A DNA stretch of 64,000 bases from Solirubrobacteraceae bacterium (GTDB lineage Bacteria > Actinomycetota > Thermoleophilia > Solirubrobacterales > Solirubrobacteraceae): the NCBI GenBank assembly GCA_049976865.1, contig JBMFHK010000001.1:31259-95258 (forward strand). The letters are read 5' to 3'. Within the stretch, counting starts at the first letter, position 1; each line of letters begins with the position of its first letter. The notes under the pieces are model-generated. The model searched no databases and was not told the origin of the DNA. It was given only the letters and a program-made list of their open reading frames with translations. Of the stretch, positions 10,740-28,590 are shown piece after piece. A program made the position numbers and the translations under genes.

Positions 10740-12508
10740 GTATGGCTGCTAGCGCCCCACGCAGGACAATCGATGTGATTGACCGCCGGATCGGTTTGCT
10801 GTTCGGCCTGTTCGTCCTGCTGTTGCTGGCTGGGATCCTGCGTGCCGGCTACCTGGGCCTGCTGCGGGGCAGCGCCTTGCGCGCCGCCGCTGTCAGCGAA
10901 CAGGTCCAGACCACCGTTATACCCGCACAGCGCGGCGAGATCACCGATCGGAGCGGAACTCCGCTCGCGCTCAGCGAGCCTACTGATCTGGTCACCGTCG
11001 ACCCCTACCTGATCAGGTCGACCTACAAAAACCCGCAAAAGATCGCCGCCGCGCTGGCGCCACTGATTGGCATGCCGCCGACTGCGACGCTGGCAGCGAT
11101 CACCAAACCGCGTACCGGGTACGTCAAGCTGGGTGAGTATGTGCCGGCGGCGTCAGCGGCCAAGATCATGGCGCTGGGCATCAACGGCATCAACGACTAC
11201 CCGACCGAGCGTCGGCTTTACCCGGGAGGGACCGAGGCAGCTCAGGTGGTCGGCTGGGCAGGTGATCACGACAACGGTCTGACAGGTATCGAGGGTCTCT
11301 TCAACCCACAGCTAGCCGGCGTCAGCGGTATTCGCCGCACCGTGCTGGACGGGCAGGGCAAGCCCATATCGGTGACGAGCACCAAGCCGATGATTCCCGG
11401 GGAAAACATCCAACTGACGCTCTCCGGCCCGCTGCAGGCTGAGGTCGAACAGGTGATCGACGCTGTTGGCAACAAGTATCACGCCCAGGGTGTCACAGCG
11501 ATCGTTTCCGACCCGCAGACCGACCAGCTTTTGGCGGTGGCCAACTGGCCGCAGGTGAACGCCAGCGATCCGGCAGCAACCGCGTTCCAGTCGGTCAACG
11601 GCCATGTTCCCGCCGCTGAAGACCAGGCCGTGGACATGTCCTACGAACCCGGATCAACGTTCAAGGTGGTGACCGTCGGCGGCGCGCTGCAGGAGGGGCT
11701 GGTCACACCCAGTTCGCCTTTCACGATCCCACCGTACCTGTCGGCGTACGGGAAACAGATCTACGACGCGGAGATGCACGGTACCGAGACGCTCACCGTC
11801 GCCCAGATCCTGAAAGTGTCCAGCAACATCGGTGCGGATCTGATCGCTCGCCGCCTCGGACCGGTGAGTTTCGCCAGGTGGGTCAAGAGGTTTGGTTTTG
11901 GCCGGGCGACCGGCGTGGATCTCCCCGGTGAGCAGATCGGCATCGTTTTGCCAGAGAGCAAGTACAACGGCCTGTCGATGTACAACATGCCGTTTGGTCA
12001 GGGCGTGTCAGTGACGCCCATGCAAATGGTCCAGGCCTATGACGCGGTCGCTGACGGCGGCATCCTGCGCACACCGCAGATCATCGAATCGATCGGCGGC
12101 CGGCGGGTGCGAGCGCCTCACGGCAGAAGGATCGTCTCCGCACGCGTGGCCCGGCAGCTGCGTGGGATGTTGCGAGGCGTGCTCACCGATGGTGGGACCG
12201 CCTCCGGTGCCGCAATTCCCGGTTATGACATGGCCGGCAAGACCGGTACGGCACAGGTCGCCGTCGACGGCAAGTACTCAGCCACCGAGTTCATCGCCTC
12301 CTTCATCGGCATGGTTCCGGCCAGCGATCCGAAACTTGTCGTGGCGGTGGTGGTCAACGATCCTCAGGGGGTCATTTACGGCGGCTCGGTCGCAGCCCCA
12401 GCGTTTCAGCAGATAGTTGGCTGGGCCGTCCCGCACTTCGGGATCGACCCGTGTCCGGCGCCGTGCCCCGCGTCCGCCTTTTCATCTGCCGCGCCCAACA
12501 GCCTGTAG
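10736..12508 (+). CDS. ftsI: class B penicillin-binding protein / peptidoglycan D,D-transpeptidase FtsI
   Basis: N-terminal TM segment, then the motifs STFKVV (SxxK), SSN and KTGT. Confidence 0.9.
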   Translation: MSMAASAPRRTIDVIDRRIGLLFGLFVLLLLAGILRAGYLGLLRGSALRAAAVSEQVQTTVIPAQRGEITDRSGTPLALSEPTDLVTVDPYLIRSTYKNPQKIAAALAPLIGMPPTATLAAITKPRTGYVKLGEYVPAASAAKIMALGINGINDYPTERRLYPGGTEAAQVVGWAGDHDNGLTGIEGLFNPQLAGVSGIRRTVLDGQGKPISVTSTKPMIPGENIQLTLSGPLQAEVEQVIDAVGNKYHAQGVTAIVSDPQTDQLLAVANWPQVNASDPAATAFQSVNGHVPAAEDQAVDMSYEPGSTFKVVTVGGALQEGLVTPSSPFTIPPYLSAYGKQIYDAEMHGTETLTVAQILKVSSNIGADLIARRLGPVSFARWVKRFGFGRATGVDLPGEQIGIVLPESKYNGLSMYNMPFGQGVSVTPMQMVQAYDAVADGGILRTPQIIESIGGRRVRAPHGRRIVSARVARQLRGMLRGVLTDGGTASGAAIPGYDMAGKTGTAQVAVDGKYSATEFIASFIGMVPASDPKLVVAVVVNDPQGVIYGGSVAAPAFQQIVGWAVPHFGIDPCPAPCPASAFSSAAPNSL

Positions 12509-12651
12509 GTGCAGAGCACAGCGATGCACTCGCCGCACCTTGCCGCTCACGACACCGAAGCGTCTGTATGTGTTGGACCTGAAGGGTGGCGTGGGCAAAG
12601 CCGGGGGCGCGAGCCCCGTGGCCGGGCTGCTGCAGCTACGCTCTGGCGCCG

Positions 12652-14079
12652 ATGGAACTGAATGCTCTGTTCCCGGGCGCGCCACCCGGTGTCACTGTTA
12701 CCGGCCTGGCCTACGACAACCGCTCGGTACGAGCCGGGGACCTGTTCTTCTGTGTGCCCGGTTTCACGCGTGACGGCCATGACTTTGCAGCGGCGGCGGT
12801 GGCGGCTGGCGCCGTTGCCCTAGTTGCCGACCATCCACTCAAGATCGATGTGCCGCAGGTTGTGGTGGCTGATGTGCGGCGTTCCATGGGGCCGGCTGCT
12901 GCCGCGTTCTTTGGGGATCCGACGGCGTTGCTGCAGCTTGCCGGGGTGACCGGCACCAACGGCAAGACCACCACTGCCTACCTGATCCGGGCGATGTTGG
13001 AGGCAGCCGGACGTCAGACCGGCATGCTCGGTACGGTCAAGAGCGTGATAGCCCGAGTCGAGTCTGACGTGCAGCGGACCACGCCGGAGGGGATCGATCT
13101 GCAGAGGTCGTTGCGGGCGATGGTGGACGGCGGCGACCGTGCGTGTGTGATGGAGGTCTCATCTCATGCGCTCGCTCTGGGTCGGGTCGAGGGGTGCCAC
13201 TTCGATGTCGGCATCTTTACGAACCTGACCCAGGACCACCTTGATTTCCACCCCACCATGGAGGACTACTTCCTTGCCAAGCGCCGGCTTTTTCTAGACG
13301 GCGCAAGCTCCGTTACGTTGGCCAATGTCGACGATCCTTACGGCGCGAGACTTGCCGCCGATCCGGCGATCAGCAACGTCATCCGGTTTGGGCTTGGGCG
13401 TCATGCAGCTGACTACAGTGCAAGCAACCTGCGCGCCTCGCGTCATGGGACCGACTTCACGCTCGCCACGCCCGAAGGCACGGTGGATGTTCACTCACCG
13501 TTGCGCGGCCGGTTCAACGTTTATAACGCGCTTGGCGCGATCGGCGCGGCCCGAGCGCTCGGTGTGACGCTGGCCGAAGCGGTCAAGGCGCTGGCAGATG
13601 CCGGGCAGGTCCCGGGACGCTTTCAGACGGTTGATGAGGGTCAGCCCTTTGCTGTGGTGGTTGACTACGCTCATACTCCGGATTCGCTTGAGAACGTGCT
13701 GCGCGCCGCCCGGAACCTGGACGCTGGACGGGTGATTGTCGTGTTTGGCTGCGGCGGCGACCGGGACCGCGGCAAACGGCCGTTGATGGGAGAGATCGCC
13801 AGTCGTCTGGCTGACGAGGTGATCATCACCTCCGACAACCCGCGATCAGAGGATCCGCAGGCAATCATCGCTGAGATTCTCGCCGGTGCCAGCAGAAAAG
13901 TTGACCACCAGGTGGACCGTCAGAAGGCGATCACCGCGGCGATCGGCCGGGCACGCAAAGGCGACGTGGTGGTGATTGCCGGCAAGGGGCATGAGCGGGG
14001 CCAAGAGTTTGAGGCCGGCCGGAAAGTTCCCTTTGACGACGTTGTGGTGGCACGTCAAGCGCTGCGGATGCAGCGCTGA
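12652..14079 (+). CDS. murE: UDP-MurNAc-L-Ala-D-Glu:meso-diaminopimelate ligase
   Basis: Motifs GVTGTNGKTTT and DNPR (TSDNPRSEDP). I placed the start at ATG 12652 (MELNALFPG); the longest ORF begins at 12586. Confidence 0.9.
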   Translation: MELNALFPGAPPGVTVTGLAYDNRSVRAGDLFFCVPGFTRDGHDFAAAAVAAGAVALVADHPLKIDVPQVVVADVRRSMGPAAAAFFGDPTALLQLAGVTGTNGKTTTAYLIRAMLEAAGRQTGMLGTVKSVIARVESDVQRTTPEGIDLQRSLRAMVDGGDRACVMEVSSHALALGRVEGCHFDVGIFTNLTQDHLDFHPTMEDYFLAKRRLFLDGASSVTLANVDDPYGARLAADPAISNVIRFGLGRHAADYSASNLRASRHGTDFTLATPEGTVDVHSPLRGRFNVYNALGAIGAARALGVTLAEAVKALADAGQVPGRFQTVDEGQPFAVVVDYAHTPDSLENVLRAARNLDAGRVIVVFGCGGDRDRGKRPLMGEIASRLADEVIITSDNPRSEDPQAIIAEILAGASRKVDHQVDRQKAITAAIGRARKGDVVVIAGKGHERGQEFEAGRKVPFDDVVVARQALRMQR

Positions 14080-14087
14080 GTGAGAGC

Positions 14088-15215
14088 GTGAAGTTGATGC
14101 TGCAAGCGGTTCTCAGCCACGGTTTCAGCGACCAGTCTGAGGCCGGACGGGTGCTGATCTCAAGCTCCACCGCGTTGCTGATGTGCCTGTTTTTGAGCCC
14201 GCGCTTCATCCGTTTCCTGAGGGAACGGCGCATGGGGCAGAACATCCGCGAGGAAGGGCCGGAAGGCCACAAGGTCAAAGCCGGGACACCAACGATGGGC
14301 GGCATCATCATCGTCATCGCGTTTGGTGTGCCGTACCTGCTTCTGTCCACTCGCGACTGGGCGTCGCTTGGTGTGTTCGGCGCCACGGTCGCCTCGGCGC
14401 TGCTGGGGTTCGCCGACGATTACATCAAGATCGTCAAACGCAGATCGCTGGGGCTGCGCGGCCGCACCAAGATGATCGCTCTGGCGCTGATCTCCATCGG
14501 GCTGTGGTGGATTGCAAGGTACAAGGCTGGTGTGTCGGACTCCATCTCGCTGCATCCGATTGGCTCAAGCGTCGATCTGGGACCGTTCTTCGTGCCGTTC
14601 ATCTGGCTGGTGTTTGCCGGCACGACCAATGCGGTGAACCTGACTGACGGCGTTGATGGCTTGGCGGCCGGCAGCGGTGCAATCGCTCTGCTTGTCTATG
14701 TCGGGATCGCGTTTGTCAGCGGCCCGCGCGCCCACGACCTGGAGCTGGCGGCCGGCTGCATGTCGGGGGCGGCGGTGGGCTTTCTTTGGTTTAACAGTTT
14801 TCCGGCAAGCGTGTTCATGGGGGACACCGGTTCGCTGGCGATCGGGGGAGCGATCGCCGCTCTGGCGGTGATGACCGACACAGAGCTGCTGCTGGTGGTG
14901 ATCGGCGGCATCTTCGTGATCGAGGCACTGTCTGTGCTGATCCAGGTGTTCTCGTTCCGGGTCTGGCACAAGCGGGTCTTTAAAATGGCGCCGATCCACC
15001 ATCACTTCGAGCTGGAAGCCTGGTCGGAAACCAAGATCACACTGCGATTCTGGATTGTGGCCGCCGCCTGTGGTGCGGTTGGCTTCACGCTCTTCCAGAT
15101 CTCTGGCGAGAAGCCGTTGACTCGGCCCGCTGGCCGAGTCACACCGGCTGCCCACGTGGTCCACGGACACGGCACGCCAAGCTCAAAAGGCATTCCCGAG
15201 CGCACGTCGAACTAA
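14088..15215 (+). CDS. mraY: phospho-N-acetylmuramoyl-pentapeptide transferase
   Basis: Motifs GQNIREEGPEGHKVKAGTPTMGG, NAVNLTDGVDGLA and APIHHHFE. Confidence 0.95.
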   Translation: MKLMLQAVLSHGFSDQSEAGRVLISSSTALLMCLFLSPRFIRFLRERRMGQNIREEGPEGHKVKAGTPTMGGIIIVIAFGVPYLLLSTRDWASLGVFGATVASALLGFADDYIKIVKRRSLGLRGRTKMIALALISIGLWWIARYKAGVSDSISLHPIGSSVDLGPFFVPFIWLVFAGTTNAVNLTDGVDGLAAGSGAIALLVYVGIAFVSGPRAHDLELAAGCMSGAAVGFLWFNSFPASVFMGDTGSLAIGGAIAALAVMTDTELLLVVIGGIFVIEALSVLIQVFSFRVWHKRVFKMAPIHHHFELEAWSETKITLRFWIVAAACGAVGFTLFQISGEKPLTRPAGRVTPAAHVVHGHGTPSSKGIPERTSN

Positions 15216-15221
15216 TCAGCG

Positions 15222-16502
15222 ATGCAGGCACGCTCAGCTCGCCGCCGAACCACCAGAAGGGTGGCGCCGCCGCTGGAGCACCGCATCCTGCTGACCGCCA
15301 CGCTGTGTCTGATCGCCTTTGGGGCTGTGATGGTCTACAGCGCCTCCTCACCAGACGGGGTGATCAACGGTGGCGGCTATGGAATCACGGACTTCGTCCA
15401 CTACCTGGTGGCGGCGGTGCTCGGCTTGACCGCGATGCGTCTCTTTGAGCAGTACGGCCTGAGCTGGTTTAACGAGACCAACGTGCGGCTGCTGCTGTAC
15501 GTCACCTTTGGTCTCATGCTGGCAGTACTGGTGCCTGGCATCGGCCGGGATGTCAACGGCGCGCGCCGCTGGTTTGCGTTCGGGCCTCTGGAGTTTCAGC
15601 CGTCCGAACTGATGAAACTGTCACTGGTGCTCTACGTGTCACGCTACCTTGCGGACCATCCAAAACGCTTGAACCTGCCTTTCCGTGCGGCGCTTGCGCC
15701 CATCGCGGTGGTCCTAGCACCGGCGTGCGGGCTGATGGTGCTGGAGCCGGACCTTGGCACCACCCTGCTGGTGGTTTTCACGATCGTTTCACTGCTGGTA
15801 GCGGCGGGGATCCCGTTCGGTCACCTCGCCCGGATCGTGCTGGTGGTAATCGGGCTGGTAGCTGTCATGGCGGTGCTGCGCCCCTATCAGCTCGGTCGTC
15901 TGACATCGTTTTTGCACCCGTTCTCAGTGGCGTCCAGCTCCGGGTGGCAGGCGGTACAGGGGCAGATGGCGGTCGGCTCCGGGGGGTTATCCGGTGTCGG
16001 GCTGGGTCAGTCGGTGGCCAAGGTTCAGTGGCTTCCGGAGGCGCAAACCGATTTCATCCTGGCGGTTGTCGGCGAGGAGCTGGGACTCATCGGCATCCTG
16101 GCCGTGGTCACCTTGTATGGGATGATCGCCTACGCTGGGCTGAGAACCGCAAGGCGTGCGGCGACACGCTACACCAAGCTGCTCGCAGCCGGTCTGACCT
16201 CACTGATTCTGTGCCAGGGCATTCTGAACATCTTCGTTGTATTGGGGATCGCGCCGCTGACCGGCGTGCCCCTACCGTTTATCTCCTATGCGCCCACGAG
16301 CCTGATCGTGATGTTGATGTGCGTGGGGCTGCTGCTGGCAATCGCCAAGCCGGCCGCGCGCGAGTTGCGACTGGTCGATACGGGCGATATCCGCGTGAGC
16401 AGGGCGGTGGCTTATGACAGTGCCGAGGATCCTGATCGCCACCGGCGGTACGGCGGGGCACATCGTTCCGGCGTTGGCAGTCGCCGGGCGTTTGAGAGAT
16501 AG
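15222..16502 (+). CDS. ftsW: SEDS-family peptidoglycan glycosyltransferase FtsW
   Basis: About 10 TM segments, with motifs FQPSELMKL and PEAQTDFILAVVGEELG. It lies between mraY and murG. Confidence 0.9.
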   Translation: MQARSARRRTTRRVAPPLEHRILLTATLCLIAFGAVMVYSASSPDGVINGGGYGITDFVHYLVAAVLGLTAMRLFEQYGLSWFNETNVRLLLYVTFGLMLAVLVPGIGRDVNGARRWFAFGPLEFQPSELMKLSLVLYVSRYLADHPKRLNLPFRAALAPIAVVLAPACGLMVLEPDLGTTLLVVFTIVSLLVAAGIPFGHLARIVLVVIGLVAVMAVLRPYQLGRLTSFLHPFSVASSSGWQAVQGQMAVGSGGLSGVGLGQSVAKVQWLPEAQTDFILAVVGEELGLIGILAVVTLYGMIAYAGLRTARRAATRYTKLLAAGLTSLILCQGILNIFVVLGIAPLTGVPLPFISYAPTSLIVMLMCVGLLLAIAKPAARELRLVDTGDIRVSRAVAYDSAEDPDRHRRYGGAHRSGVGSRRAFER

Positions 16503-17538
16503 CGGCGCCGAGGTGATCTTCGCCGGCGGCGGCCGGGCGGAGGCGCAGATGGTGCCGGAGGCCGGCTACGAGTTCCACCAGCTGCGAGTGGCATCGCTGT
16601 CACGCCGGTCACCGTTGCGCGCTACGAGCGCCGTTGTGGTCGACGCGCTGGCGGTCGCGGCGGCCGCCAGGCTTCTCACACGCGTCCGTCCACGCGCTGT
16701 CTTTGGTGGTGGCGGCTACGCCTCGGGACCGGTTGGGGTTGCCGCTGCGATGTTGCGTGTGCCGTTGGTGATCGCCGAGCTGGACGGCCATCTCGGACTC
16801 ACCAACCGGATGCTTGCGCCGTTGTCCCGGCGTGTGTGTACAGCGCTGCCGCTCGGCGTCGAGAGCCCCCGTTTTGTGATCACTGGACGGCCGATCCCGC
16901 CGATGCCCGCCGATCGAGGTGCCGCACGGGCACGGTTTGGGGTTTCTGCGGGGGAGACGCTGGTGCTGATCTTTGGTGGCTCATTGGGCGCACGCTCGAT
17001 CAACAATGCCGCTCTGGAGGCTTTTGCCGACAGTGACTTTCGCGTGTTGCATGCGGCTGGTGAGCGTGACCTTGCGGCGCTGCGCTCGCCACGCGCAGGG
17101 TACGACTTGAGAGGCTACGTGTCGGGTTTCATGGACGCTATCGTCGCCGCTGATCTGGTGGTGGCTCGCTCGGGCGGTTCGATCTGGGAGATCGCTGCTG
17201 CTGGTCGGCCTTCGATCCTGATCCCGTATCCGCATGCCACGGCAGATCACCAGACAGTCAATGCGGAGTATTTGGCCAACGCTGGAGCTAGCGTGATCAT
17301 CCGGGACGCTGAGTTGGATGCGCGGCGGCTGCGGTTTGAAGTTGATGGCCTACTTGCCGACCGTGAACGTCTTGCGTCGATGCAGCGCGCAGCGCTTGGG
17401 TTGGCGCGGCCGCATGCGGCCGCTGTGGTGGCATCCGAGATTCTGACCGCCGCAGGTCTTGGCTCGCTGGTCGCGCCCGGCGAGCACGTTGCTGAGCTTG
17501 AGCAGGGTGTCGCGGCAAGGGGTCGAGATGGGAGCTGA
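16414..17538 (+). CDS. murG: UDP-GlcNAc:lipid I N-acetylglucosaminyltransferase
   Basis: The N-terminus ILIATGGTAGHIVPALAVA is characteristic, with HQTVNAEYL near the C-terminus. The ATG at 16414 overlaps the ftsW 3' end by 89 nt in another frame. Confidence 0.9.
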   Translation: MTVPRILIATGGTAGHIVPALAVAGRLRDSGAEVIFAGGGRAEAQMVPEAGYEFHQLRVASLSRRSPLRATSAVVVDALAVAAAARLLTRVRPRAVFGGGGYASGPVGVAAAMLRVPLVIAELDGHLGLTNRMLAPLSRRVCTALPLGVESPRFVITGRPIPPMPADRGAARARFGVSAGETLVLIFGGSLGARSINNAALEAFADSDFRVLHAAGERDLAALRSPRAGYDLRGYVSGFMDAIVAADLVVARSGGSIWEIAAAGRPSILIPYPHATADHQTVNAEYLANAGASVIIRDAELDARRLRFEVDGLLADRERLASMQRAALGLARPHAAAVVASEILTAAGLGSLVAPGEHVAELEQGVAARGRDGS

Positions 17539-18874
17539 GAGAGGGCGGGGACCGTGGGCTGGCAGGCGGCTTCACTTCGTCGGTGTTGGCGGGGCAGGGA
17601 TGAGCGGTCTGGCGCTGATCGCTGTTGCCCTGGGCGCATCCGTCAGCGGCTCTGATCGCAGCGACTCGCCCTACCTGCAGCCGCTCAGAGATGCCGGTGT
17701 GGTGCCGGCGCTCGGCCATGCGGCCGCGAACGTGCCGCCTGGAGCCCAGGTCGTGTACTCAACGGCGATCGATCCGGCTAACCCAGAACGGACCGCGGGT
17801 CTGCCGGAGCATGGCGGCGGCGGCGTTCTGCATCGCTCTGAACTGCTGGCCGAGATTGCAGGGCGCAAACGCTGTCTGGCGGTCAGCGGCGCTGCTGGTA
17901 AGACCACCACTTCAGCGATGATCGTCCACATCCTGCAAAGCTGCGGTATGGATCCGGCCTATGTGGTGGGCGGCGAGCTGGTCGACACCGGACGTAACGC
18001 TGGCTGGGGGACTGGGGACTGGATTGTCGTTGAGGCGGATGAGTCGGATCGTTCACTGCTCAACTATGTACCGGAGATCGCTGTGCTGACCAACAGTGAG
18101 CTTGATCATCACAGCACCTATCGCTCACGACTGGACTTGGAAGCGACATTCGCGACCTTTTTGGCGCGGGCTAAGGTGGCGGTCGTCTGGGACCGTCCCG
18201 GCCTGCTGGAACTTGCGCGGGGGGCAGCCGAAGCGACTGCCTATGACATCCAGCAGCCGCGCCTTGACCGCACGGGTGCGAGCTTCCAGTGGCACGGCAT
18301 TGACGTGTGGGTGCCGATGCCTGGACACCACAATGCGCTCAACGCCGCTGGCGCACTGACCGCCAGCGTGGCGGCCGGTGCGGAGCCGGCCGCGGCCGCT
18401 GCGGCACTGGCTGATTTCCACGGGGTCAAGCGGCGGATGCAGTTGCTTGGCCGTCACGCCAGCGGCGCTCAGATCTACGATGACTACGCCCACCATCCCA
18501 TGAAGGTTCAGGCTGCGCTGGCGGCGGCTCGGACGTTGCAGCCAGCACGGCTGGTGGTCGTCTTTCAACCACATCTTTTCTCGCGCACCAAGGCGCTTGC
18601 CTCTGAGTTCGGCCGGGCGTTGGCGCCAGCAGACCTGTGCTGTGTTACAGACGTGTACCCCGCACGCGAGAACCATGCTGATTTTCCAGGCGTTGACGGG
18701 CGGCTGGTCGCCGCGGCTGCCGCTGACGCAGGCGGCGCTGTGGCCTGGATGCCACGGCTGGATGACGCTGCGCGTTGGCTGGATGGCACGCTGCGTGAAG
18801 GCGACCTTTGTGTGGTTATGGGCGCCGGCAATATCGACTCGCTCGGACGCGCGCTCGTGGGAGCGCAAAGCTGA
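17528..18874 (+). CDS. murC: UDP-N-acetylmuramate:L-alanine ligase
   Basis: Motifs LHFVGVGGAGMSGLA and SGAAGKTTTSAM. The start ATG at 17528 overlaps the murG end. Confidence 0.9.
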   Translation: MGAERGRGPWAGRRLHFVGVGGAGMSGLALIAVALGASVSGSDRSDSPYLQPLRDAGVVPALGHAAANVPPGAQVVYSTAIDPANPERTAGLPEHGGGGVLHRSELLAEIAGRKRCLAVSGAAGKTTTSAMIVHILQSCGMDPAYVVGGELVDTGRNAGWGTGDWIVVEADESDRSLLNYVPEIAVLTNSELDHHSTYRSRLDLEATFATFLARAKVAVVWDRPGLLELARGAAEATAYDIQQPRLDRTGASFQWHGIDVWVPMPGHHNALNAAGALTASVAAGAEPAAAAAALADFHGVKRRMQLLGRHASGAQIYDDYAHHPMKVQAALAAARTLQPARLVVVFQPHLFSRTKALASEFGRALAPADLCCVTDVYPARENHADFPGVDGRLVAAAAADAGGAVAWMPRLDDAARWLDGTLREGDLCVVMGAGNIDSLGRALVGAQS

Positions 18875-19842
18875 TGCGGGCCGTGACCGGGCCCAGCGTC
18901 CGGACTGCACGCTCGCTGTCGTGGCTGCCTGCCGGTGTCCAGCGTGACTTTCCCCTGAGGCGTCTGACGACGATCCGCACCGGCGGTGTCGCTGAGTTCT
19001 TCGCACGCCCAGGGAGCGCCGAGCAGCTGGAGGAGCTGCTCGCCTGGGCAAAATCCGTGGCTGTGGAGGTAGGGGTCGTTGGCTCGGGGTCGAATCTGCT
19101 GGTAGCGGACGCGGGTGTACCGGGTCTGGTGATCAAATTGGACGGAGCATTCACAGAGATCGATACCAGTCCTGGAGACGAAGGACGTCTGCGCTGCGGG
19201 GCTGGCGCTAGGCTGCCGGCGGTTGCCGCGGCAGCGGCAACCGCCGGGCTGAGCGGTATCGAGTTTGGTATCAGCATCCCCGGGACGGTTGGTGGAGCGG
19301 TCCGCATGAACGCCAACGCTTATGGGGGTTCGCTGGCGGCCGTGCTTGAGTGGGTGGACGTAACCTCCGGTGTCGGCACGCAGCGCCGGAGACCCACTGA
19401 ACTAGGGTTTGCTTACCGACGCTCGAACCTGGCGGACGGTGAGATCGTCGTCAGCGCGGGGTTTAGTCTCAGCCGGGCCGAGCCGGAGCTGGTCAAGGTG
19501 ACGCTTGCGCAGTTGCGCCGTCGCCGCCGTGCGGCGCAACCCGCTGGCATCAGAACGTTTGGATCGACATTTCGCAACCCCAGTGATCCGCGAGCCGAGG
19601 GCCGTACCGCTGGACAGTTGCTGGACGCCGCCGGCTGTCGCGGATTGCGGATCGGAAACGCGGGTTTCAGCGAGAAACACGCCAACTTCATCCAGAACTT
19701 CGGGGACGCAACGACTGCTGAGGTGGTTGCGGTGATGTCTGAAGGACACCGCCGTGTGCGCGAGCTATTCGGCGTGAGCCTGCAGCCGGAGGTACAGACG
19801 CTGGGCCAGGTCGGATTTCCGGACGACTGGTGGTCGCTGTGA
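18874..19842 (+). CDS. murB: UDP-N-acetylenolpyruvoylglucosamine reductase
   Basis: FAD-binding region (RTGGVAEFF, GSGSNLLV) and C-terminal GSTFRNP. The start forms a TGATG overlap with the murC stop. Confidence 0.9.
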   Translation: MRAVTGPSVRTARSLSWLPAGVQRDFPLRRLTTIRTGGVAEFFARPGSAEQLEELLAWAKSVAVEVGVVGSGSNLLVADAGVPGLVIKLDGAFTEIDTSPGDEGRLRCGAGARLPAVAAAAATAGLSGIEFGISIPGTVGGAVRMNANAYGGSLAAVLEWVDVTSGVGTQRRRPTELGFAYRRSNLADGEIVVSAGFSLSRAEPELVKVTLAQLRRRRRAAQPAGIRTFGSTFRNPSDPRAEGRTAGQLLDAAGCRGLRIGNAGFSEKHANFIQNFGDATTAEVVAVMSEGHRRVRELFGVSLQPEVQTLGQVGFPDDWWSL

Positions 19843-20678
19843 GTACCGGCAGCGGGCCGGCGCGGCGCTGGTGGCTCAGGCGGCGCGTGTCAAGCGTCGA
19901 GTTTCATGTTCCAAACCGCCATCGGCGCGCCACCAGGGTCTTGATCGCTGTGGTCAGTGCGGGCCTGCTCGGTTGGTTGGGCTGGCTTTGGTTTCAGAAC
20001 TCCGCCTTTGTGCGCGTCAGGCACGTGACCGTTGTCGGGTTGAGCGGACCGGACGTTGTACGCATTCGCTCCCAACTGACCAGCGCGGCGCTTGCGATGA
20101 CAACTCTGAACATGAGCGCAGCACGTTTGAAGGCCGCGGTGGCGGCATATCCTGTCGTGCAAGCCGTTTCGCTGCAGGCGCACGGCGCCCACAGTCTGAC
20201 CATCAGGGTCGTTGAGCAGGTGCCGGTAGCGCAGATCGAGGAGGGCGGGAAAACCGAGTTGGTTGATGCCAGCGAGCAGGTTCTGGCACGCAGTCCGCTT
20301 GCCCACAGCTCGCTGCCACGGCTTCTGCTGCGGGCGGCTCCACCAGCCTCGGTCATCAGCGCGCCAGGTGCGCGTGCCGCGGTGGCTGTGCTGGCGGCGG
20401 CTCCCTACCGTCTGCTGGCGCACATTCAGAGTGCGACCTGGTCTGCTTTACATGGGGTGATCCTGCAGTTGCGCGGCGGCCCTCAGATCTACTTTGGCGA
20501 GACCGCCGAGCTCGCTCTCAAGTGGAATGCTGCCGTCGCTGTGCTCCAGAACGCCACCTCGCAGGGTGCCGCTTACATCGATGTCTCCGATCCGCGTCGC
20601 CCGGCGGCCGGGGTCGGCGTCTCCAACCAGCAGGCCGCGGCCTTGGGTCTGGTAAGCCAGCTCAACACCACTGGTTAG
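19830..20678 (+). CDS. ftsQ: cell division protein FtsQ (POTRA domain)
   Basis: N-terminal TM (VLIAVVSAGLLGWLGWLWF), then a POTRA-like segment (VRVRHVTVVGLSGPDVVRIRSQL). It occupies the expected position after murB. Confidence 0.8.
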   Translation: MVAVSTGSGPARRWWLRRRVSSVEFHVPNRHRRATRVLIAVVSAGLLGWLGWLWFQNSAFVRVRHVTVVGLSGPDVVRIRSQLTSAALAMTTLNMSAARLKAAVAAYPVVQAVSLQAHGAHSLTIRVVEQVPVAQIEEGGKTELVDASEQVLARSPLAHSSLPRLLLRAAPPASVISAPGARAAVAVLAAAPYRLLAHIQSATWSALHGVILQLRGGPQIYFGETAELALKWNAAVAVLQNATSQGAAYIDVSDPRRPAAGVGVSNQQAAALGLVSQLNTTG

Positions 20679-20781
20679 CCGGCCGCTGGCCAGGGCGGAT
20701 AGATCGCGGCGCAGCCCGGCGGGCGTGTAGCGGGCGTGTTGTGCCGGCGGTGAGCTCAGAGGCGGCGTGAGAGGGAGTCAG

Positions 20782-20880
20782 GATGCACAAACTGCGCGCC
20801 TGAAAGGCGATTTGTGCATCTGATGCCGAAAACCGGCGGGTTTTTGCGCAAACTGGCTTTGCGCAGCGCAGCTTGTGCAT
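20782..20880. repeat. cluster of five TTTGYGCA octamers with nested hairpins
   Basis: Octamers lie at 20784 (inverted), 20811, 20843, 20858 and 20872 (this last one reads CTTGTGCA). GATGCACAAA (20782..20791) pairs with TTTGTGCATC (20811..20820), with an inner CGCC/GGCG stem. There is also a hairpin AAAACC-GGCG-GGTTTT (20829..20844). Confidence 0.7.
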
Positions 20881-20886
20881 TTCATG

Positions 20887-21008
20887 GCGCTTCGCCACGC
20901 GCGCGACGGTTTGCCGTCCGCCAGTGCTCTGACCTCTTCGGATTCGAGCGCTTCACCGCGCGCGCGACGGTCTGCCTGCCGCGATCGACCTCAAACCCGG
21001 TCGCTGAC
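20887..21008. repeat. degenerate 61-nt tandem duplication (29-nt cores match 26/29)
   Basis: GCGCTTCGCCACGCGCGCGACGGTTTGCC at 20887..20915 matches GCGCTTCACCGCGCGCGCGACGGTCTGCC at 20948..20976. Confidence 0.7.
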
Positions 21009-21181
21009 ACGGCCAGTGAAACCAAACCAGCTGTAAAGCGCCGCCGAGTCAGGTTGGCTCTTCGCTGGTTTTCGTGGTTGGCGTGCGCTGAGGTCTGGTT
21101 TGCTGGGCGGCTTGTGATCCTCGATGAGGGGAGCCCGGTACGCAGGACCAGGACCTGCTGCTCTTTCAGGCCGCGCTGGGG

Positions 21182-21718
21182 TTGACAGCCCCGCGGCAAG
21201 TCACGTCGGGTGTGTTTGACCGTGACACCCGGCGGTGGATCCGCGGGCTGCGCAACCTCCCGTTTCGCGAGTTCGCCAAAAACCAGGTGTGGCCACCGCG
21301 CGTGATGCTCGCCCAGGACCTCATCGCCATAACCCAGCAGCTTTGCCTCAAAGACCAGGCACGTCGCCGGGAGCTCAAACGGCTTGAGCCACCGGCTGGC
21401 GCACCAGTCAGGCCGCATCAGCGCCCGCACACCCGCCGGACCGTGCTGAGACTCTCCGGCTCCTGGCCGTGGGCCGGGCTGCTCGCGGCTGGCAAGACGG
21501 GACTGCTCTCGCTCCGCGCCTACGGATTCCGCTCCCCCGACGCCCTGATCTACCTCTGCTGCGGCGGCATCCAGATCGCGCTCCCGCACCGCCAAGTCAC
21601 CCCCAAACCGAGAGGAGAGCCCTATTTCCCACTGGCACCCCTGGCGTTGACAAAGGGCCCGGGGGAGATACGCTGCACCGTAGAGGATCAGGCTCGGTTG
21701 GGGCCGGCAGGGTCGTGA
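21182..21718 (+). pseudogene. C-terminal remnant of an IS1380-family-like transposase
   Basis: GLRNLPFREFAKNQVW...ELKRL...RRTVLRLSGSWPWAGLL resembles, from memory, the conserved IS1380 C-terminal block (GLRNLP..F..NQ.W...EPKRLR...RL.L....WPW). No intact N-terminal catalytic part lies upstream. Confidence 0.5.
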
Positions 21719-21797
21719 AGCGTCGGCGATACGTCGGGTCGGCCTGCGAACGGGGTGCCTCTGGGTAAGGCATGAAGTGGTCGAGATTGGGGCGGTA

Positions 21798-22937
21798 ATG
21801 ATGCGCGGGACTTCGGGGAAGGGCGTCAAGCGAGCCGTCGCCGTGCTTGTGGCAGGTCTCGTCGTAGCATCGGTGGCGCAGGCAAGTCCTGCGGTTGCAA
21901 GCGTTGTCTCCGTCGGCGTGCAGCTCGGGAATGTGACCGGCCCGGGCACGATCACTGTTGCGGTCGCACAGTACAGCAACTACGACAACGCAGGCGTGCC
22001 GCAAACGATCACCGAGGTGCCGCTTGAGACCGTGGCGGTCCCGAGTGGCGGCAGTCAGACGATCGAAGTCCCGGCCTCTGCGCTTGCGCAGTACACGGCA
22101 CAAGCTGGTGTTGTCAACCTTCAGCTCACGGCGACGTTCGGTAGCGAGGTGTCGGTTGCCGCGACACCGCTGAGCGTTTCTCCCGCTGCCGCGGGCTTGG
22201 CGACGGCGGCCCGTGACCTGCCGGGCCATCTCCGCGTGCGGTTTACGCGCTTTCACAGGCTGCCGCATCTTGTGGCGGGTGGAGGGCATGCCGCCGCCGG
22301 GGGCGGCTGTGTATGGCAGGCGAGCGGATCTGAGACCGAACACTCCGCTCGGATCGGCGAGCTGCACGTGGCCAACGCGTCTGGCGCTTCGGCAACATAC
22401 CATTACAGTCAGCAGGCGGACAGCACCTTCGGCGTGGAGTACTCGGACTCGGGCCCGACAAGCGGCTATTCAGAGTCCGGGACCGCCTCTGTGGGGAACT
22501 CTTGGGGCACGAACGCGAGCTTGTACGGTGGCCAGGGTTACCTGTGGTACATCGACAGCCACTTCTACTCAGAGACCTACCGCAGCAACTACAGCACCAC
22601 CGGTACCTGGGCCTGCGGAAGTGAATACATGACCCAGGTGGTTTCAGCCGTTGGCGACGTGTACCAGGGCACGAACCAGCCTCGGGCCAACCCGTATGGA
22701 ACCTGCACCAACGACCCGTATGGTTACGCGACGGTTAACCCCCATGGTTCGTGGGGCACCGATCGCGGCCGGGCGCAGTCCTATAGCGTGTCGCTGTCGA
22801 TCTTCGGCGTCGGCCTTTACGGCGATACAGGATTCAACAGCAACATCAACATCACGTATCGCAACGCGAGCAGCAGTGACCAGTATGTTTGCGGCACCAC
22901 ATACATGTCCGACGTGCCGGTCCTCTATGAGAGCTGA
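21798..22937 (+). CDS. secreted protein of unknown function, with a Tyr/Ser/Gly/Thr/Asn-rich C-terminal domain
   Basis: Signal peptide (KRAVAVLVAGLVVASVAQA|SP), then a beta-strand-like N-terminal domain. The last ~180 aa contain 21 Tyr and three Cys (WACGSEY, YGTCTND, YVCGTTY). Codon structure is clean. Confidence 0.7.
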   Translation: MMRGTSGKGVKRAVAVLVAGLVVASVAQASPAVASVVSVGVQLGNVTGPGTITVAVAQYSNYDNAGVPQTITEVPLETVAVPSGGSQTIEVPASALAQYTAQAGVVNLQLTATFGSEVSVAATPLSVSPAAAGLATAARDLPGHLRVRFTRFHRLPHLVAGGGHAAAGGGCVWQASGSETEHSARIGELHVANASGASATYHYSQQADSTFGVEYSDSGPTSGYSESGTASVGNSWGTNASLYGGQGYLWYIDSHFYSETYRSNYSTTGTWACGSEYMTQVVSAVGDVYQGTNQPRANPYGTCTNDPYGYATVNPHGSWGTDRGRAQSYSVSLSIFGVGLYGDTGFNSNINITYRNASSSDQYVCGTTYMSDVPVLYES

Positions 22938-22948
22938 CGTTGTAAGCG

Positions 22949-23569
22949 ATGGCAGCTGCCCGCACAAGGACGATCGGCAGGTCAAAGCTCAGCCGGGCAC
23001 GCTTGGTGGTGTTCGCCTGTAGCACGGTAATTGCCGCGGCAGGATGCGACTCGACGATAGCCGGCCTGAACGGGAACGCTGGCGCCGGGATTGCAGGAGC
23101 AGTCCAGGTTTTGCCTGGGCAAGCTGGGACCACCACCGTGTGGATCGTCAATCACTCGGGGAGCAGAGTTATTTTCCGTAGCGCCCGCCTGATGAGGCTG
23201 CCGGGCTACCGGCTGCCGCGCTTTGCGGGCGTGTGGCTGGAACCGACCCCGAGGATAGTTGGCGTCGGGAGCGGCACGCCACCCCGATCGACCAGCGAGG
23301 GGCGTGTGGTGCAGTATCAGGGGATACCTGTTACGCGGTTAGCCGGGTTTGTGCTTGAACCGGGTCAGACCGCCCGGGTTCTCTATGGCATGGTCGATGA
23401 GCACCTGGGCCACTACGCCGCGCGTGGCATTGTCGTCACGGTCAGCGCAGCACGGGGCCAGACAGCCACGGTTGACGCGCTCGGCGCAGGCGCTATCTGC
23501 GTGGTCAAGAGCCTGAAGGGCGTGTGCGACCCGTTCAGCCCCGCGTTTCGCCCGCCCGGTTCCGGATAG
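22949..23569 (+). CDS. putative lipoprotein of unknown function (206 aa)
   Basis: A basic N-terminus and hydrophobic stretch end in a lipobox-like IAAAGC|DS. The gene starts 11 nt after the preceding gene, suggesting co-transcription. Confidence 0.65.
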   Translation: MAAARTRTIGRSKLSRARLVVFACSTVIAAAGCDSTIAGLNGNAGAGIAGAVQVLPGQAGTTTVWIVNHSGSRVIFRSARLMRLPGYRLPRFAGVWLEPTPRIVGVGSGTPPRSTSEGRVVQYQGIPVTRLAGFVLEPGQTARVLYGMVDEHLGHYAARGIVVTVSAARGQTATVDALGAGAICVVKSLKGVCDPFSPAFRPPGSG

Positions 23570-23799
23570 GGCGCGATACGCGCAGCGGCTGGTGATCTGA
23601 CGCCAGCTCTAATCCTGCTTGTGGCCCACGGCCGCAGGGGCCGCACGCCACCTACGTGACGCTCAAGCGCACCGCCGCCTTGCTGCGGAAAGGCGGGTCC
23701 TCGACGCTAACCTGGGTCGCAGATGCCAGGCGGAGCCGTGAACGCGACCTACTCCGCGCCGGCGCGTTTCGTGGTTCGCGACGGCCGTTTGGTGGTCGC

Positions 23800-24361
23800 C
23801 TTCTGGCTGCTGGTGGCGGTGGCGACCGGGGCGCTGCCACGTCCGCTCTCACCTCGCAAAGGCGGTCGACGAGGTCCGCCGTGGATAGGTCAAGCACAAC
23901 CGGGAGCTGCTGGCGAATGCGCGGTACATGTAGCTCAAACGGCCAGCGAACCTCACTGAGAAGCAGCGGGATCTGCTGGATGAGCTGCTCGCCCAGCCGC
24001 TTGAGACGGTGCGTGCCTACACCCTCGCACAACAGTTCGACAGCTTCTATGAGATCCCAGGCCCCGATACCGCGCAGGAGTATCTGCGCCGCTGGATCAC
24101 CGAGGTCGACGCAAGCGGGCTTGAGCCAGTCAAACGGTTCGCAAGGATGCTCGAGGATCACTGGTCCGAGGTGATCCGCTGGCATCACAGCCAGATCAGC
24201 AACGGGCTGCTCGAAGGCTTCAACTCACTCATCCAGGCAGCGAAACGCCGTGCCCGCGGATACCGCACGAACCGCAACTCCATCGCGATGATCTACCTCA
24301 TCGCAGGCAAACTCAACGCCGGCCCCGTCATCGCGTAACCCACCCGAATCAGCGAGGAGCC
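23800..24361 (+). mobile_element. 3' remnant of an ISL3-family element (transposase pseudogene with in-frame stops, plus terminal inverted repeat)
   Basis: One frame reads ...HVRSHLAKAVDEVRRG*VKHNRELLANARYM*LKRPANLTEKQRDLLDELLAQPLETVRAYTLAQQFDSFY...HWSEVIRWHHSQISNGLLEGFNSLIQAAKRRARGYRTNRNSIAMIYLIAGKL. That is the ISL3 DDE C-terminal signature, interrupted by TAG stops at 23886 and 23931. The reverse complement of 24339..24361 is GGCTCCTCGCTGATTCGGGTGGG, a GGCTCTTCG-type ISL3 end. The left boundary is approximate. Confidence 0.75.
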
Positions 24362-24565
24362 GTCCGGTTGCGGGCAGGGGCGATCAACACCATTCCCCCG
24401 CAACTGGATCCCTGAAACTTCTATAGCGCTCCGGCCCAGATCGCCACGAGATCACAGCCCAAACCAAGCCGCCGACATCTGAATAGTCGCGGCCAGACGG
24501 ACGTTTTCGGGTTAGGGCGACCGGGCTTTTTGCGTGCAACGTTCGTTGCGGACTCACGGCGATCG

Positions 24566-24595
24566 TTGACGCGGCCGAAGACGAACACGTAACGT
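24566..24595 (+). promoter_or_regulatory. candidate ftsZ promoter
   Basis: TTGACG (24566..24571), an 18-nt spacer, then TAACGT (24590..24595), about 70 nt upstream of the ftsZ ATG. This is sequence-pattern evidence only. Confidence 0.35.
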
Positions 24596-24665
24596 GCGAA
24601 ACTCCGCGATAAGCGGAGCCAGTGGCAAACCTTCATCTTTAACCAAGGGCCGGACGAGAATCACC

Positions 24666-25763
24666 ATGGAAAGCGGCAGCTATCTCGCAGTTATCAAGGT
24701 CGTAGGTGTCGGCGGGGGTGGTACCAACGCCGTCAATCGCATGGTCGATGCCGGTCTGCGTGGCGTAGAGTTCATTGCGGCCAACACGGACGCCCAGGCG
24801 CTGCAGATGTGCGATGCCGACATCAAGCTCAACATCGGGACGCAGTTGACCAAGGGTCTTGGCGCGGGCGCCAACCCGGAGGTTGGTCAGGGCGCCGCCG
24901 CGGAGTCACGTGACGACATCAAGGAGGCCCTGAAAGGCGCCGACATGGTGTTTGTCACCGCTGGTGAAGGAGGCGGCACAGGTACCGGTGCCGCGCCTGT
25001 GATCGCAGAGATTGCCAAGAATGAGATCGGCGCGCTCACGGTTGGGGTTGTGACGCGTCCGTTCGGATTTGAGGGCGCCCAGCGAGCCAGACAGGCGCAG
25101 GAGGGCATCGAGAGGCTGCGTGAATGTGTCGATACGCTGGTGGTGATTCCCAACGAAAAGCTGCTGGCGGTTGTCGAACGGCGCGCATCATTGACCGATG
25201 CGCTGCGTGAGGCGGACAACGTGCTGCGCCAGGGGGTTCAGGGGATCACCGACCTGATTACGATCCCCGGTCTCATCAACCTTGATTTTGCTGACGTGCG
25301 CACAATCATGCACGGCGCCGGTTCGGCGCTGATGGGGATCGGCGCCTCAAGCGGTGAGAACCGTGCGGCGGAGGCCGCCAAGCAGGCAATTTCATCGCCG
25401 CTGCTTGAGGAGTCGGTTGAAGGCGCCAGCGGGATTCTGCTCAATATCACTGGCGGCCGCGACCTTGGACTGTTTGAAGTGAACGAGGCTGCAGAGATCG
25501 TGCAGAGCGCCGCCGACGCCAACGCCAACATCATCTTCGGTGCCGTGATCGACGATTCGATGTCAGACGAGGTAAGGGTCACCGTGATCGCTACGGGATT
25601 TGATCAGCGGAGCAAGCCCGTGACGGGTAGGTCAACGCGCACTACGCCTCCGGCGCGGCCGCGTCCGGTTGGCCGGGATGTCACACTCGACTCGCGTCAA
25701 CGCTCCTCTTTGGAGATTCGCGACGACGAGATTGATATTCCGGCGTTCCTGAAGGATCGCTGA
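24666..25763 (+). CDS. ftsZ: cell division GTPase FtsZ
   Basis: Motifs [17 protein letters not shown] and [13 protein letters not shown], with a C-terminal peptide [10 protein letters not shown] placed the start at ATG 24666. Confidence 0.95.
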
Positions 25764-25810
25764 GCCGACATTTCTGTGACGCTTCGCGCGCAGGGTCTAT
25801 ACGCTGCGTA

Positions 25811-26902
25811 GTGATGTCACCCACACAACCCACCGAACTGCGGCATACGCCGCTACACGACGCGCATCTAGCTGCGGGCGCCAAGCTCGTCCCATTCGCC
25901 GGATGGGAGATGCCGATCGACTATGGAAGCCTGCGTCAGGAGCACCTTGCGGTGCGCTCGGCGGCGGGCATATTTGATGTCTCGCACATGGGGCAGGTCG
26001 AGGTTTCAGGCCCTGGTGCCGCACAGTGCGTGCAACACCTGGTTTCCAACGACATCAGGCACATTCAGGAGGGAGGGGCTCAGTACTCGCTGCTTTGTAA
26101 TGAGCACGGAGGCGTGCTTGACGACCTGTTCATCTACCGGCTGGCCGAGCAGACGTTCCTGATCATCACCAATGCCGCCAACCATGCTCGCGACCTTGAC
26201 TGGATGCGCTCTCACGCCGACGGTTGTGACGCCGACTTCACCGATCGCATCGATGAGTTCGCGATGCTGGCGGTGCAAGGACCAACGGCCCGTCGTCTTC
26301 TGACACACCTGGCGGACGGCGCCCTGCCACCACGGTTCCACTGCGCCCAGCGTTCTGTGGCCGGCGTGCCGGCTCTGGTCTGTGGCACGGGTTACACCGG
26401 TGAGGACGGAGTGGAGCTGCTGGTCGCGCCAGGCCATGCGGTCTCGCTGTGGGACGCCATTGTGGCGGCTGGCGCAAGGCCCATCGGTCTTGGTGCCCGC
26501 GACACCTTGCGTCTTGAAGCGTGCTTCCACCTGTACGGCAACGATCTCAGTGAAGATCGTGATCCCATCGGGGCGGGCCTCGGCTGGGCCTGCGCTGAGG
26601 GTACGGGCTTCATTGGCTCTGAACCCATTGCGGCGATCCGTGCGGCCGGACCGGCACAGAAGCTGGTCCCGTTTGTGATCGACGGTCCTGGCATCGCGCG
26701 GCAGGGCAATCCGGTGGTGGGTGGCGGTGTCGTCACCAGCGGATCTTTCTCCCCAAGCCTTGAGCAGGGCATCGGTTTGGCGTATGTGCCAGCCAGTGCT
26801 GCCGCCGTTGGCACCAGTTTTCAGATTGACGTTCGCGGCACCATCCGCAACGCCACCGTTCACGCAAAGCCTCTCTTTTCGAAAGGACCGATTGATGGCT
26901 GA
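25811..26902 (+). CDS. gcvT: glycine cleavage system aminomethyltransferase (T protein)
   Basis: The N-terminus TPLHDAHLAAGAKLVPFAGWEMPIDYGS is typical of GcvT. It is followed by gcvH and gcvP. Confidence 0.9.
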   Translation: MMSPTQPTELRHTPLHDAHLAAGAKLVPFAGWEMPIDYGSLRQEHLAVRSAAGIFDVSHMGQVEVSGPGAAQCVQHLVSNDIRHIQEGGAQYSLLCNEHGGVLDDLFIYRLAEQTFLIITNAANHARDLDWMRSHADGCDADFTDRIDEFAMLAVQGPTARRLLTHLADGALPPRFHCAQRSVAGVPALVCGTGYTGEDGVELLVAPGHAVSLWDAIVAAGARPIGLGARDTLRLEACFHLYGNDLSEDRDPIGAGLGWACAEGTGFIGSEPIAAIRAAGPAQKLVPFVIDGPGIARQGNPVVGGGVVTSGSFSPSLEQGIGLAYVPASAAAVGTSFQIDVRGTIRNATVHAKPLFSKGPIDG

Positions 26903-27277
26903 ACCAACCTACCCGGACGATCTGCATTACCACGCAGAGCATGACTGGGCCCGCATCGAGGGTGATGAGGCGACCTTTGGAATCACCTGGTATGCGCAGG
27001 ACTCGCTTGGTGAGATCGTCTTCTTCACCCCTCCCGCGATCGGCACGACCTTAACAGCCGGCGAGTACTACACGGAGGTGGAATCGGTGAAGGCCGTCTC
27101 TGACGTGCTCGCGCCGCTGTCAGGCGAGGTGATCGCCGTCAACGAGGATCTGGCCAATAATCCGCAGCTGGTCAACGAAGACCCGTATGGCACCGGTTGG
27201 CTTGTGCGAGTGAAGCTCTCCGATCCGTCAGAGGCGCAGGCGCTGATGGACTCAGCAACCTACGTGGCGTCACTGTC

Positions 27278-27281
<4 letters not shown>
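26895..27281 (+). CDS. gcvH: glycine cleavage system H protein
   Basis: Lipoyl-lysine motif VESVKAVSDV. The start ATG at 26895 overlaps the gcvT end by 8 nt. Confidence 0.9.

Positions 27282-28590
<1,309 letters not shown>

Follow-up and report, generated by a model that had tools for sequence, protein, structure and literature searches.

In the 64,000-nucleotide stretch analysed in this work (contig JBMFHK010000001.1, referred to below as the window), which derives from a soil actinobacterium of the order Solirubrobacterales, the division genes ftsQ and ftsZ are separated by approximately 4 kb of DNA. Judged by comparison with related loci, the content of this gap is an insertion specific to the lineage of the window. 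We consider it probable that positions 21056-24361 (3306 bp) represent one unit, bounded on both sides by the ends of an insertion sequence (IS) of the ISL3 family and inserted in a single event. With its transposase gene no longer intact, the unit would be non-autonomous.

The plus strand of the window reads murG, murC, murB, ftsQ, gap, ftsZ, gcvT, gcvH, gcvP. The genes facing the gap are ftsQ (19830..20678, plus strand; Pfam FtsQ_DivIB_C and POTRA_1, NCBIfam FtsQ) and ftsZ (24666..25763, plus strand, ATG at 24666; Tubulin and FtsZ_C). Their ends at 20678 and 24666, as given in a preliminary description of this DNA, were confirmed by domain matches and by alignment with relatives. Searches with FtsQ placed the host in the Solirubrobacterales (Thermoleophilia). 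Solirubrobacteraceae-type metagenome-assembled genomes supplied the best FtsQ matches (37-62% identical); for FtsZ the highest identity was 91%, and no near-identical genome was present in the collections searched.

Eleven related Solirubrobacterales loci (L001-L006, L010 and L016-L019) were used for comparison. In all of them the spacer between ftsQ and ftsZ is 195-202 bp long, in contrast to about 4 kb in the window, and none has the two genes carried by the unit (the cargo genes, see below) in this spacer; gcvT, gcvH and gcvP follow directly after ftsZ in 10 of the 11, the exception being L002. It is the short spacer without cargo genes in every relative that identifies the 4 kb as a lineage-specific insertion. 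An insertion had been proposed in the preliminary description, with an ancestral arrangement as the alternative; the comparison bears out the former, and the latter fails.

The ends of the unit are of the ISL3 type. The left terminal inverted repeat, GGCTCTTCGCTGGTTTTCGTGGTT, lies on the plus strand at 21056..21079, and the right one, which reads GGCTCCTCGCTGATTCGGGTGGGT inward, on the minus strand at 24338..24361. A tip pattern derived from both ends of ISAtc1 and from the right repeat of the window, GGCTCYTCG-N4-TT-N3-GTGGKT, was matched in the 64 kb only at 21056 (plus strand) and 24361 (minus strand), against 0.05 matches expected by chance, and the exact 12-mer GGCTCYTCGCTG occurs at the same two places only. 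Immediately outside the tips are the 8-bp sequences GTCAGGTT (21048..21055) and GTCCGGTT (24362..24369), identical at 7 of 8 positions, which we read as the left and right copies of a target-site duplication; a duplication of 8 bp has been reported for an ISL3-family element (PMC12554700).

From left to right, the interior of the unit consists of a trace of the ISL3 transposase N-terminus, a C-terminal fragment of an IS1380-family transposase, a two-gene cassette and the C-terminal part of the ISL3 transposase. The last of these (23850..24338, plus strand) matched PF01610 with an E value of 3.5e-24 and NF033550, at positions 216-369/370, with 9e-35; its scores are below the NCBIfam cut-off for full-length proteins because only profile positions 216-369 remain. 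The reading frame is interrupted by TAG codons at 23886 and 23931 and ends with TAA at 24336-24338. In one frame, LFQAALGLTAPRQVTSGVF is encoded some 105 bp inward of the left tip and aligns to residues 5-30 of the ISAtc1 transposase. This N-terminal trace (21161..21235, plus strand; LFQAALGLTAPRQVTSGVFDRDTRR) is weak: its score of 37, the best of six frames, was reached by 4 of 5000 shuffles. From about residue 30 to about profile position 216 the ISL3 transposase is missing or unrecognisable, and with the two in-frame TAG codons the gene is not intact. The preliminary description had noted the 3' part of an ISL3 element with the two TAG codons and an inverted repeat ending at 24361, and the profile matches agree with it; more generally, the similarities to ISL3 and IS1380 transposases persisted in profile and BLAST searches.

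Several observations weigh against a single ISL3-bounded unit. Aligned without gaps, the left and right repeats match at 18 of 26 positions only, a value that some shuffles of the 64 kb reach; what carries the case is therefore the tip motif common to both ends together with the target duplication, in which there is one mismatch. The N-terminal trace was not detected by the NCBIfam HMM, BLASTP or tblastn. A second, weaker ISL3-like right end, agreeing at 12 of 17 specified positions and having no duplication, is present at 21599-21621. The 64-kb window contains no intact copy of either the ISL3 or the IS1380 element, and the collections searched, which hold no FtsQ of more than 62% identity, yielded no empty-site sequence for comparison. 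Finally, for the way in which the cassette entered the ISL3 element, which we infer, two routes (see below) would fit the present sequence equally well. Plasmid BLAST searches with 20740-21180 and 21040-21250 gave no informative match.

The alternative that survives best, although we regard it as rather unlikely, is a compound transposon, in which two ISL3 copies would have flanked the IS1380 fragment and the cassette, the whole would have been moved by the outer ends, and both copies would have decayed later. A left ISL3 end with a stub, the cargo, and an ISL3 3' half with its right end fit such an origin equally well, and the left copy could have had its inner end at the motif at 21599-21621. 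However, the agreement of this motif with the ISL3 end is near chance and it may instead be the right end of the IS1380 element, and a compound origin requires two deletions instead of one.

Very doubtful is a second alternative, according to which separate remnants of IS1380 on the left and of ISL3 on the right bracket the cargo, and the ISL3-like repeat at 21056 is there by chance. It is true that both IS remnants are real, that the ungapped repeat match is within the range of shuffles and that the N-terminal trace is statistically weak. On the other hand, the tip of the left repeat, GGCTCTTCG, is canonical for ISL3, has the inverted orientation required and is unique in the 64 kb, the likelihood that the 8-mers outside the tips match at 7 of 8 positions by chance is, for fixed ends, roughly 4e-4, and two different IS families would be unable to form a working composite transposon. 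Such a pair of brackets around a decayed, composite-like islet had been the proposal of the preliminary description. Its central idea, that the cargo is IS-borne, was borne out; the brackets have to be redrawn, since ISL3 repeats bound both sides and the IS1380 fragment lies inside. That the 4 kb is an assembly artefact, namely a chimeric join in a metagenome-assembled contig, is highly improbable: although the source has no near-identical public counterpart and IS sequences are commonly misassembled, both flanks are, within one contig, the expected neighbours in the dcw cluster (division and cell wall), the ends of the unit match and are flanked by a target duplication, the G+C content of the unit equals that of the window (65.0% in both), the third-position G+C of the cargo is host-like, and the window has no further copies of these IS sequences with which they could have been collapsed.

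A single ISL3-bounded unit can be compared with several known kinds of mobile element. Like ISL3 IS such as ISAtc1 and ISAeme19 and their derivatives, it has repeats that start with GGCTCTTCG and contain, at an equal distance, the inner block GTGGGT, a transposase stop codon located within the right repeat, and an 8-bp target duplication. It differs from intact ISL3 elements in that its transposase is mostly missing and the remainder has two stops, and in its mosaic interior, which includes a fragment of another IS family; its mobility would be possible only in trans. Passenger genes within the IS ends are also found in the passenger-carrying ISL3 derivatives known as transporter IS (tIS), but these have a working transposase, whereas the transposase gene of the unit is a pseudogene. 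With the IS1380 capture units, ISEcp1-blaCTX-M and the ISPme1 TMos, the unit shares an IS1380 3' end directly upstream of co-oriented cargo (PMC9330008). In contrast to these, only the last approximately 90 transposase codons survive in the window, the 5' part of the IS having been deleted, and the cargo has a candidate promoter of its own. Capture units of this type have a left repeat and a surrogate right repeat around IS and cargo, with a duplication of 4-5 bp outside them. In a metagenome contig (L007, see below) the end of an IS66 element abuts the cassette at the same point, so that the boundary could belong to the cassette rather than to IS1380. Compound transposons resemble the unit in having cargo between IS-derived ends and one target duplication around the whole, but in the window there are no two recognisable copies of one IS, and the left 'copy' would measure only about 180 bp.

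Taken as a single ISL3-bounded unit, the present arrangement could have arisen as follows. Before ISL3 arrived, earlier insertions would have lengthened the ftsQ-ftsZ spacer, originally of about 200 bp, to about 670 bp. The cassette would have entered the ISL3 element before the latter came into the spacer, by one of two routes. In route A an IS1380 element would have captured DNA adjoining its 3' end, like ISEcp1 and ISPme1, and inserted with this cargo into the ISL3 transposase gene; in route B the unit would have begun as a compound transposon with two ISL3 copies and decayed afterwards. An ISL3 transposase, acting in cis before its decay or in trans, would then have transferred the complete unit to the spacer in a single event. 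The 5' part of IS1380 and the central part of the ISL3 transposase gene would have been lost later through one or more deletions. The insertion was probably tolerated because the proximal ftsZ promoter region was left untouched: the unit ends 205 bp upstream of the ftsZ -35 element, and ftsZ has kept its ancestral proximal promoter, the upstream palindrome and the leader.

The IS1380 fragment (21281..21550, plus strand) corresponds to amino acids 366-454 of a 459-amino-acid IS1380 transposase from Kitasatospora (pairwise E 1e-14) and matched NCBIfam NF033539 with an E value of 7.5e-5. In a tblastn search with this region nearly all matches listed fell under genes annotated as IS1380 transposase. 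The remnant had previously been placed at about 21182..21718; the similarity is real, but it is confined to approximately 21280-21550, and the open reading frame 21182-21718 is a chimeric reading frame and not a gene. The outer end of the IS lies somewhere between 21550 and 21635; in related IS1380 elements of Streptomycetaceae the IS end is about 180 bp past the transposase stop codon. On the same strand the cassette begins at 21636, next to the 3' end of the IS, the fragment having ended by 21635. IS1380-family elements are able to mobilise DNA adjoining their 3' end (PMC9330008).

The limits of the cassette (21636..23640, plus strand) were derived from the stretch it has in common with other contigs. 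Positions 21636-23548 are 89% identical in nucleotide sequence to L007, a JGI metagenome contig, the comparison with which sets the start of the cassette, and identity to L011 and L012 continues to 23640. The junction between the cassette and the C-terminal part of ISL3 is placed within 23641-23850. A candidate promoter, TTGACA-16-TACGCT, is located at 21647..21674 (plus strand), and its TTGACA is kept in L007. The first gene (21798..22937, plus strand) encodes a predicted secreted protein with a signal-peptide-like N-terminus and four invariant cysteines, without a Pfam or PDB match; the second (22949..23569, plus strand) encodes a lipoprotein-like product with a hydrophobic N-terminus (...IAAAGC). 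In all homologous loci that reach far enough (L007, L008 and L021-L023) the lipoprotein-like gene follows the gene of the secreted protein. Both genes, called intact-looking in the preliminary description (21798..23569), are intact. Their dN/dS values against homologues were 0.17-0.55; between the window and L010 the values were 0.04 for ftsZ and 0.13 for gcvT. Judged by these ratios, the cargo genes are under purifying but relaxed selection. At third codon positions the cargo genes have a G+C similar to that of host genes, which, together with the G+C of 65.0%, suggests a donor of similar composition.

The surroundings of the cassette differ from contig to contig. It is found between transposase genes of the IS66 family and the ISAzo13 type in L007 and between clpB and add in L008; L011 and L012 have a truncated copy between vapBC and leuB, and in L021 a 43%-identical gene pair is situated in a plain chromosomal neighbourhood without IS. 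By these comparisons the cassette is a separable module, an uncharacterised two-gene family that is sometimes picked up by IS elements. A word-index search returned only 3 and 4 homologues for the two cargo proteins, whereas for the secreted protein an exhaustive profile search gave 238 clusters (at 50% identity), the majority with an N-terminal extension of 40-60 residues. The window's two proteins had no match in Pfam, NCBIfam or PADLOC, and the secreted-protein family had none in Pfam except for an fn3 domain in one long member. A PDB search gave matches at chance level only (E 0.044 and 0.28), and the AlphaFold2 models of both cargo proteins were of low confidence (mean pLDDT 30.9 and 30.8).

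Three further features of the cassette copies were observed. In the secreted-protein gene, the part coding for the signal peptide and the mature part are in different frames in L007 (943-1080), L008 (600-700) and L009 (380-500), in L008 with the shift at a run of 7 G, whereas the copies of the window and of L021 are intact. The promoter spacer of L007 has 10 consecutive G, against 5 in the window. Pseudogenes or tracts prone to slippage could account for these differences. The cassette is met at one and the same nucleotide, some 10 bp upstream of its -35 element, by the end of IS1380 in the window (21636) and by that of IS66 in L007 (position 811), and this shared point may be either a preferred insertion point or the natural boundary of a discrete cassette.

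When the unit and one copy of the duplication are removed, the spacer is 673 bp long, compared with 195-202 bp in the relatives. Consequently, at least one earlier event must have added about 470 bp, namely 20703-21047 and 24370 to approximately 24533. The spacer has taken more than one insertion, in line with the insertion hotspot that the preliminary description offered as one reading. The non-coding filler at 20703..21047, which predates ISL3, has no counterpart in the spacer of the relatives and stands in the place of their FtsR-like repeat (see below). In the non-coding DNA at 24370..24533 the final tens of bases may be ancestral spacer that has diverged. Read in this way, the two segments were contiguous before the ISL3 insertion.

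The filler contains a twin-hairpin repeat element (20745..20915, plus strand), the hairpins of which, GCACAAA..TTTGTGC, are 61 bp apart. The AT-richer, hairpin-containing character of 20782..20880, pointed out earlier, was confirmed: the segment has a G+C content of 55.6% against 65.0% in the window and holds two 33-nt hairpins (20785-20817 and 20846-20878) and a small hairpin with a T-run (20824-20848). Its folding is unusually stable, with a z-score of -4.5 on the minus and -2.7 on the plus strand. One copy was found in the 64 kb and one related copy each in L008 (2480-2640, between the lipoprotein gene and add, downstream of the cassette) and L019 (4751-4844, between murC and murB, its hairpins likewise spaced by 61 bp); the consensus fold of the three sequences keeps both hairpins, with some compensatory changes. 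Rfam gave no match for 20500-24800 at E values up to 1. The segment is a candidate for a palindromic repeat of the REP or MITE type, families that have many copies dispersed over a genome and, in the case of MITEs, terminal repeats and a target duplication.

The twin-hairpin element thus occurs in three unrelated intergenic sites, two of which belong to dcw clusters (after ftsQ in the window and between murC and murB in L019). Adjoining it are two direct repeats of 35 nt (20887-20921 and 20948-20982, plus strand), 86% identical and unexplained, which start 61 bp apart and share this period with the hairpins. An origin of the 61-bp period from integron attC sites or a CRISPR-like array was rejected: there are two copies each of unrelated repeat types, and no integrase or cas gene was seen in 17000-27500. 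An octamer cluster at 33819 was in coding sequence and unrelated, and a tblastx run returned only high-G+C noise.

Insertions near ftsZ are not confined to the window. In L002 about 4.6 kb (12100-16700), including glycosyltransferase genes, separates ftsZ from gcvT, which are adjacent in the other relatives; the neighbourhood of ftsZ has therefore taken insertions more than once in the Solirubrobacterales.

The last approximately 130 bp before ftsZ (24534..24665, plus strand) align with the spacer of the relatives and represent the ancestral regulatory region of the gene. Conserved in it are the palindrome GCAACGTTCGTTGC at 24536-24549, just upstream of the -35 element, the -35 sequence TTGACG (24566-24571), the 18-bp spacer, the -10 sequence TAACGT (24590-24595), a hairpin in the 5' untranslated leader (24602-24618) and the ATG; the start of ftsZ aligns with ATGGAAAGCGGCAG in all relatives. 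The -35, spacer and -10 elements are at identical distance from the ATG in seven aligned relatives and in three further spacers. By virtue of this conservation, rather than of agreement with a consensus, TTGACG-18-TAACGT is the ancestral ftsZ promoter and not, as had been supposed in the preliminary description, a replacement acquired after the insertion. A scan for promoters of the E. coli type detected none in the region because TAACGT agrees with TATAAT at 3 of 6 positions only. The palindrome, GCAACG-NN-CGTTGC, is largely conserved in the aligned relatives (some have GCAAAG or GCAATC) and is a candidate operator.

Transcription from upstream may also reach ftsZ. Every element in the gap points in the same direction as the dcw genes, a layout compatible with read-through from ftsQ. 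Near ftsQ, only one site on the plus strand resembles a terminator, the weak hairpin with T-run at 20824-20848, and such sites are no more numerous than expected by chance. The dedicated ftsZ promoter in the spacer is a feature that the window shares with other actinobacteria such as C. glutamicum and M. tuberculosis.

The region around the ftsQ stop codon has changed. In the window ftsQ ends with TAG at 20676-20678; the frame continues as PAAGQGG up to the next stop at 20700-20702. Because this downstream sequence matches the C-terminal tail of FtsQ in L016 (...SPAAGSSGG*), the present TAG looks like a recent truncation by 8 codons. Sequence unrelated to the relatives starts directly after the probable ancestral stop at 20700-20702.

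In most relatives a 25-bp inverted repeat extends over the ftsQ stop codon, for example AACTCTCCAGTAGAGCTTGAGGGTA; it lies at 10830-10854 in L003 and at the equivalent position in L001-L006, L010 and L016-L018. The FtsR operator of Corynebacterium glutamicum has been defined experimentally as AACCCTAAAGTAAAGGTTGAGGGTA (PMC6683498), and the repeat AACTCTCCAGTAGAGCTTGAGGGTA agrees with it at 20 of 25 bases. Scored against this operator, the site at the ftsQ stop reached 16-20 of 25 in nine relatives. The copy of L001 at the ftsQ stop (AACTCTCTAGTAGAGCTTAAGTCTC) agrees at 16 of 25, counted by eye, whereas the best scan match in L001, 17 of 25, sits near the ftsZ start; in L019 the score reaches only 15 of 25. 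In the gap of the window the best match was 14 of 25, which is at chance level (random 240-bp segments of the window reached at most 15 of 25), and a position-weight-matrix scan for the repeat gave nothing above the level of shuffles in the whole 64 kb. Most relatives thus have a 25-bp repeat with up to 20 of 25 bases in common with the C. glutamicum operator, and the window differs from FtsR-operator systems in having no such repeat. These observations suggest that FtsR-type control of ftsZ extends to the Thermoleophilia, and the FtsR-like operator is the only regulatory element whose loss from the window is likely. Expression of ftsZ there would probably depend on the core promoter, whether or not read-through contributes.

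As a kind of element, a mosaic and decayed IS-derived transposon is ordinary and mechanistically nothing new; its place is unusual and informative. The adjacency of ftsQ and ftsZ is among the most conserved gene linkages in bacteria; in the window, which comes from an uncultured and little-studied order of actinobacteria, 4 kb of mobile DNA interrupts it. In addition, an uncharacterised two-gene family without a Pfam model is linked to IS-mediated movement. The locus offers a place to ask how far the expression of ftsZ depends on upstream dcw transcription and on an FtsR-type operator. A more far-reaching view, which we regard as unlikely, is that the unit can be mobilised in trans and spreads the cargo pair among Solirubrobacterales, and that together with the earlier twin-hairpin insertion it removed the FtsR-type operator and rewired the control of ftsZ. 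If the operator was indeed lost and control rewired, the window would represent a natural experiment in which the core ftsZ promoter alone is enough.

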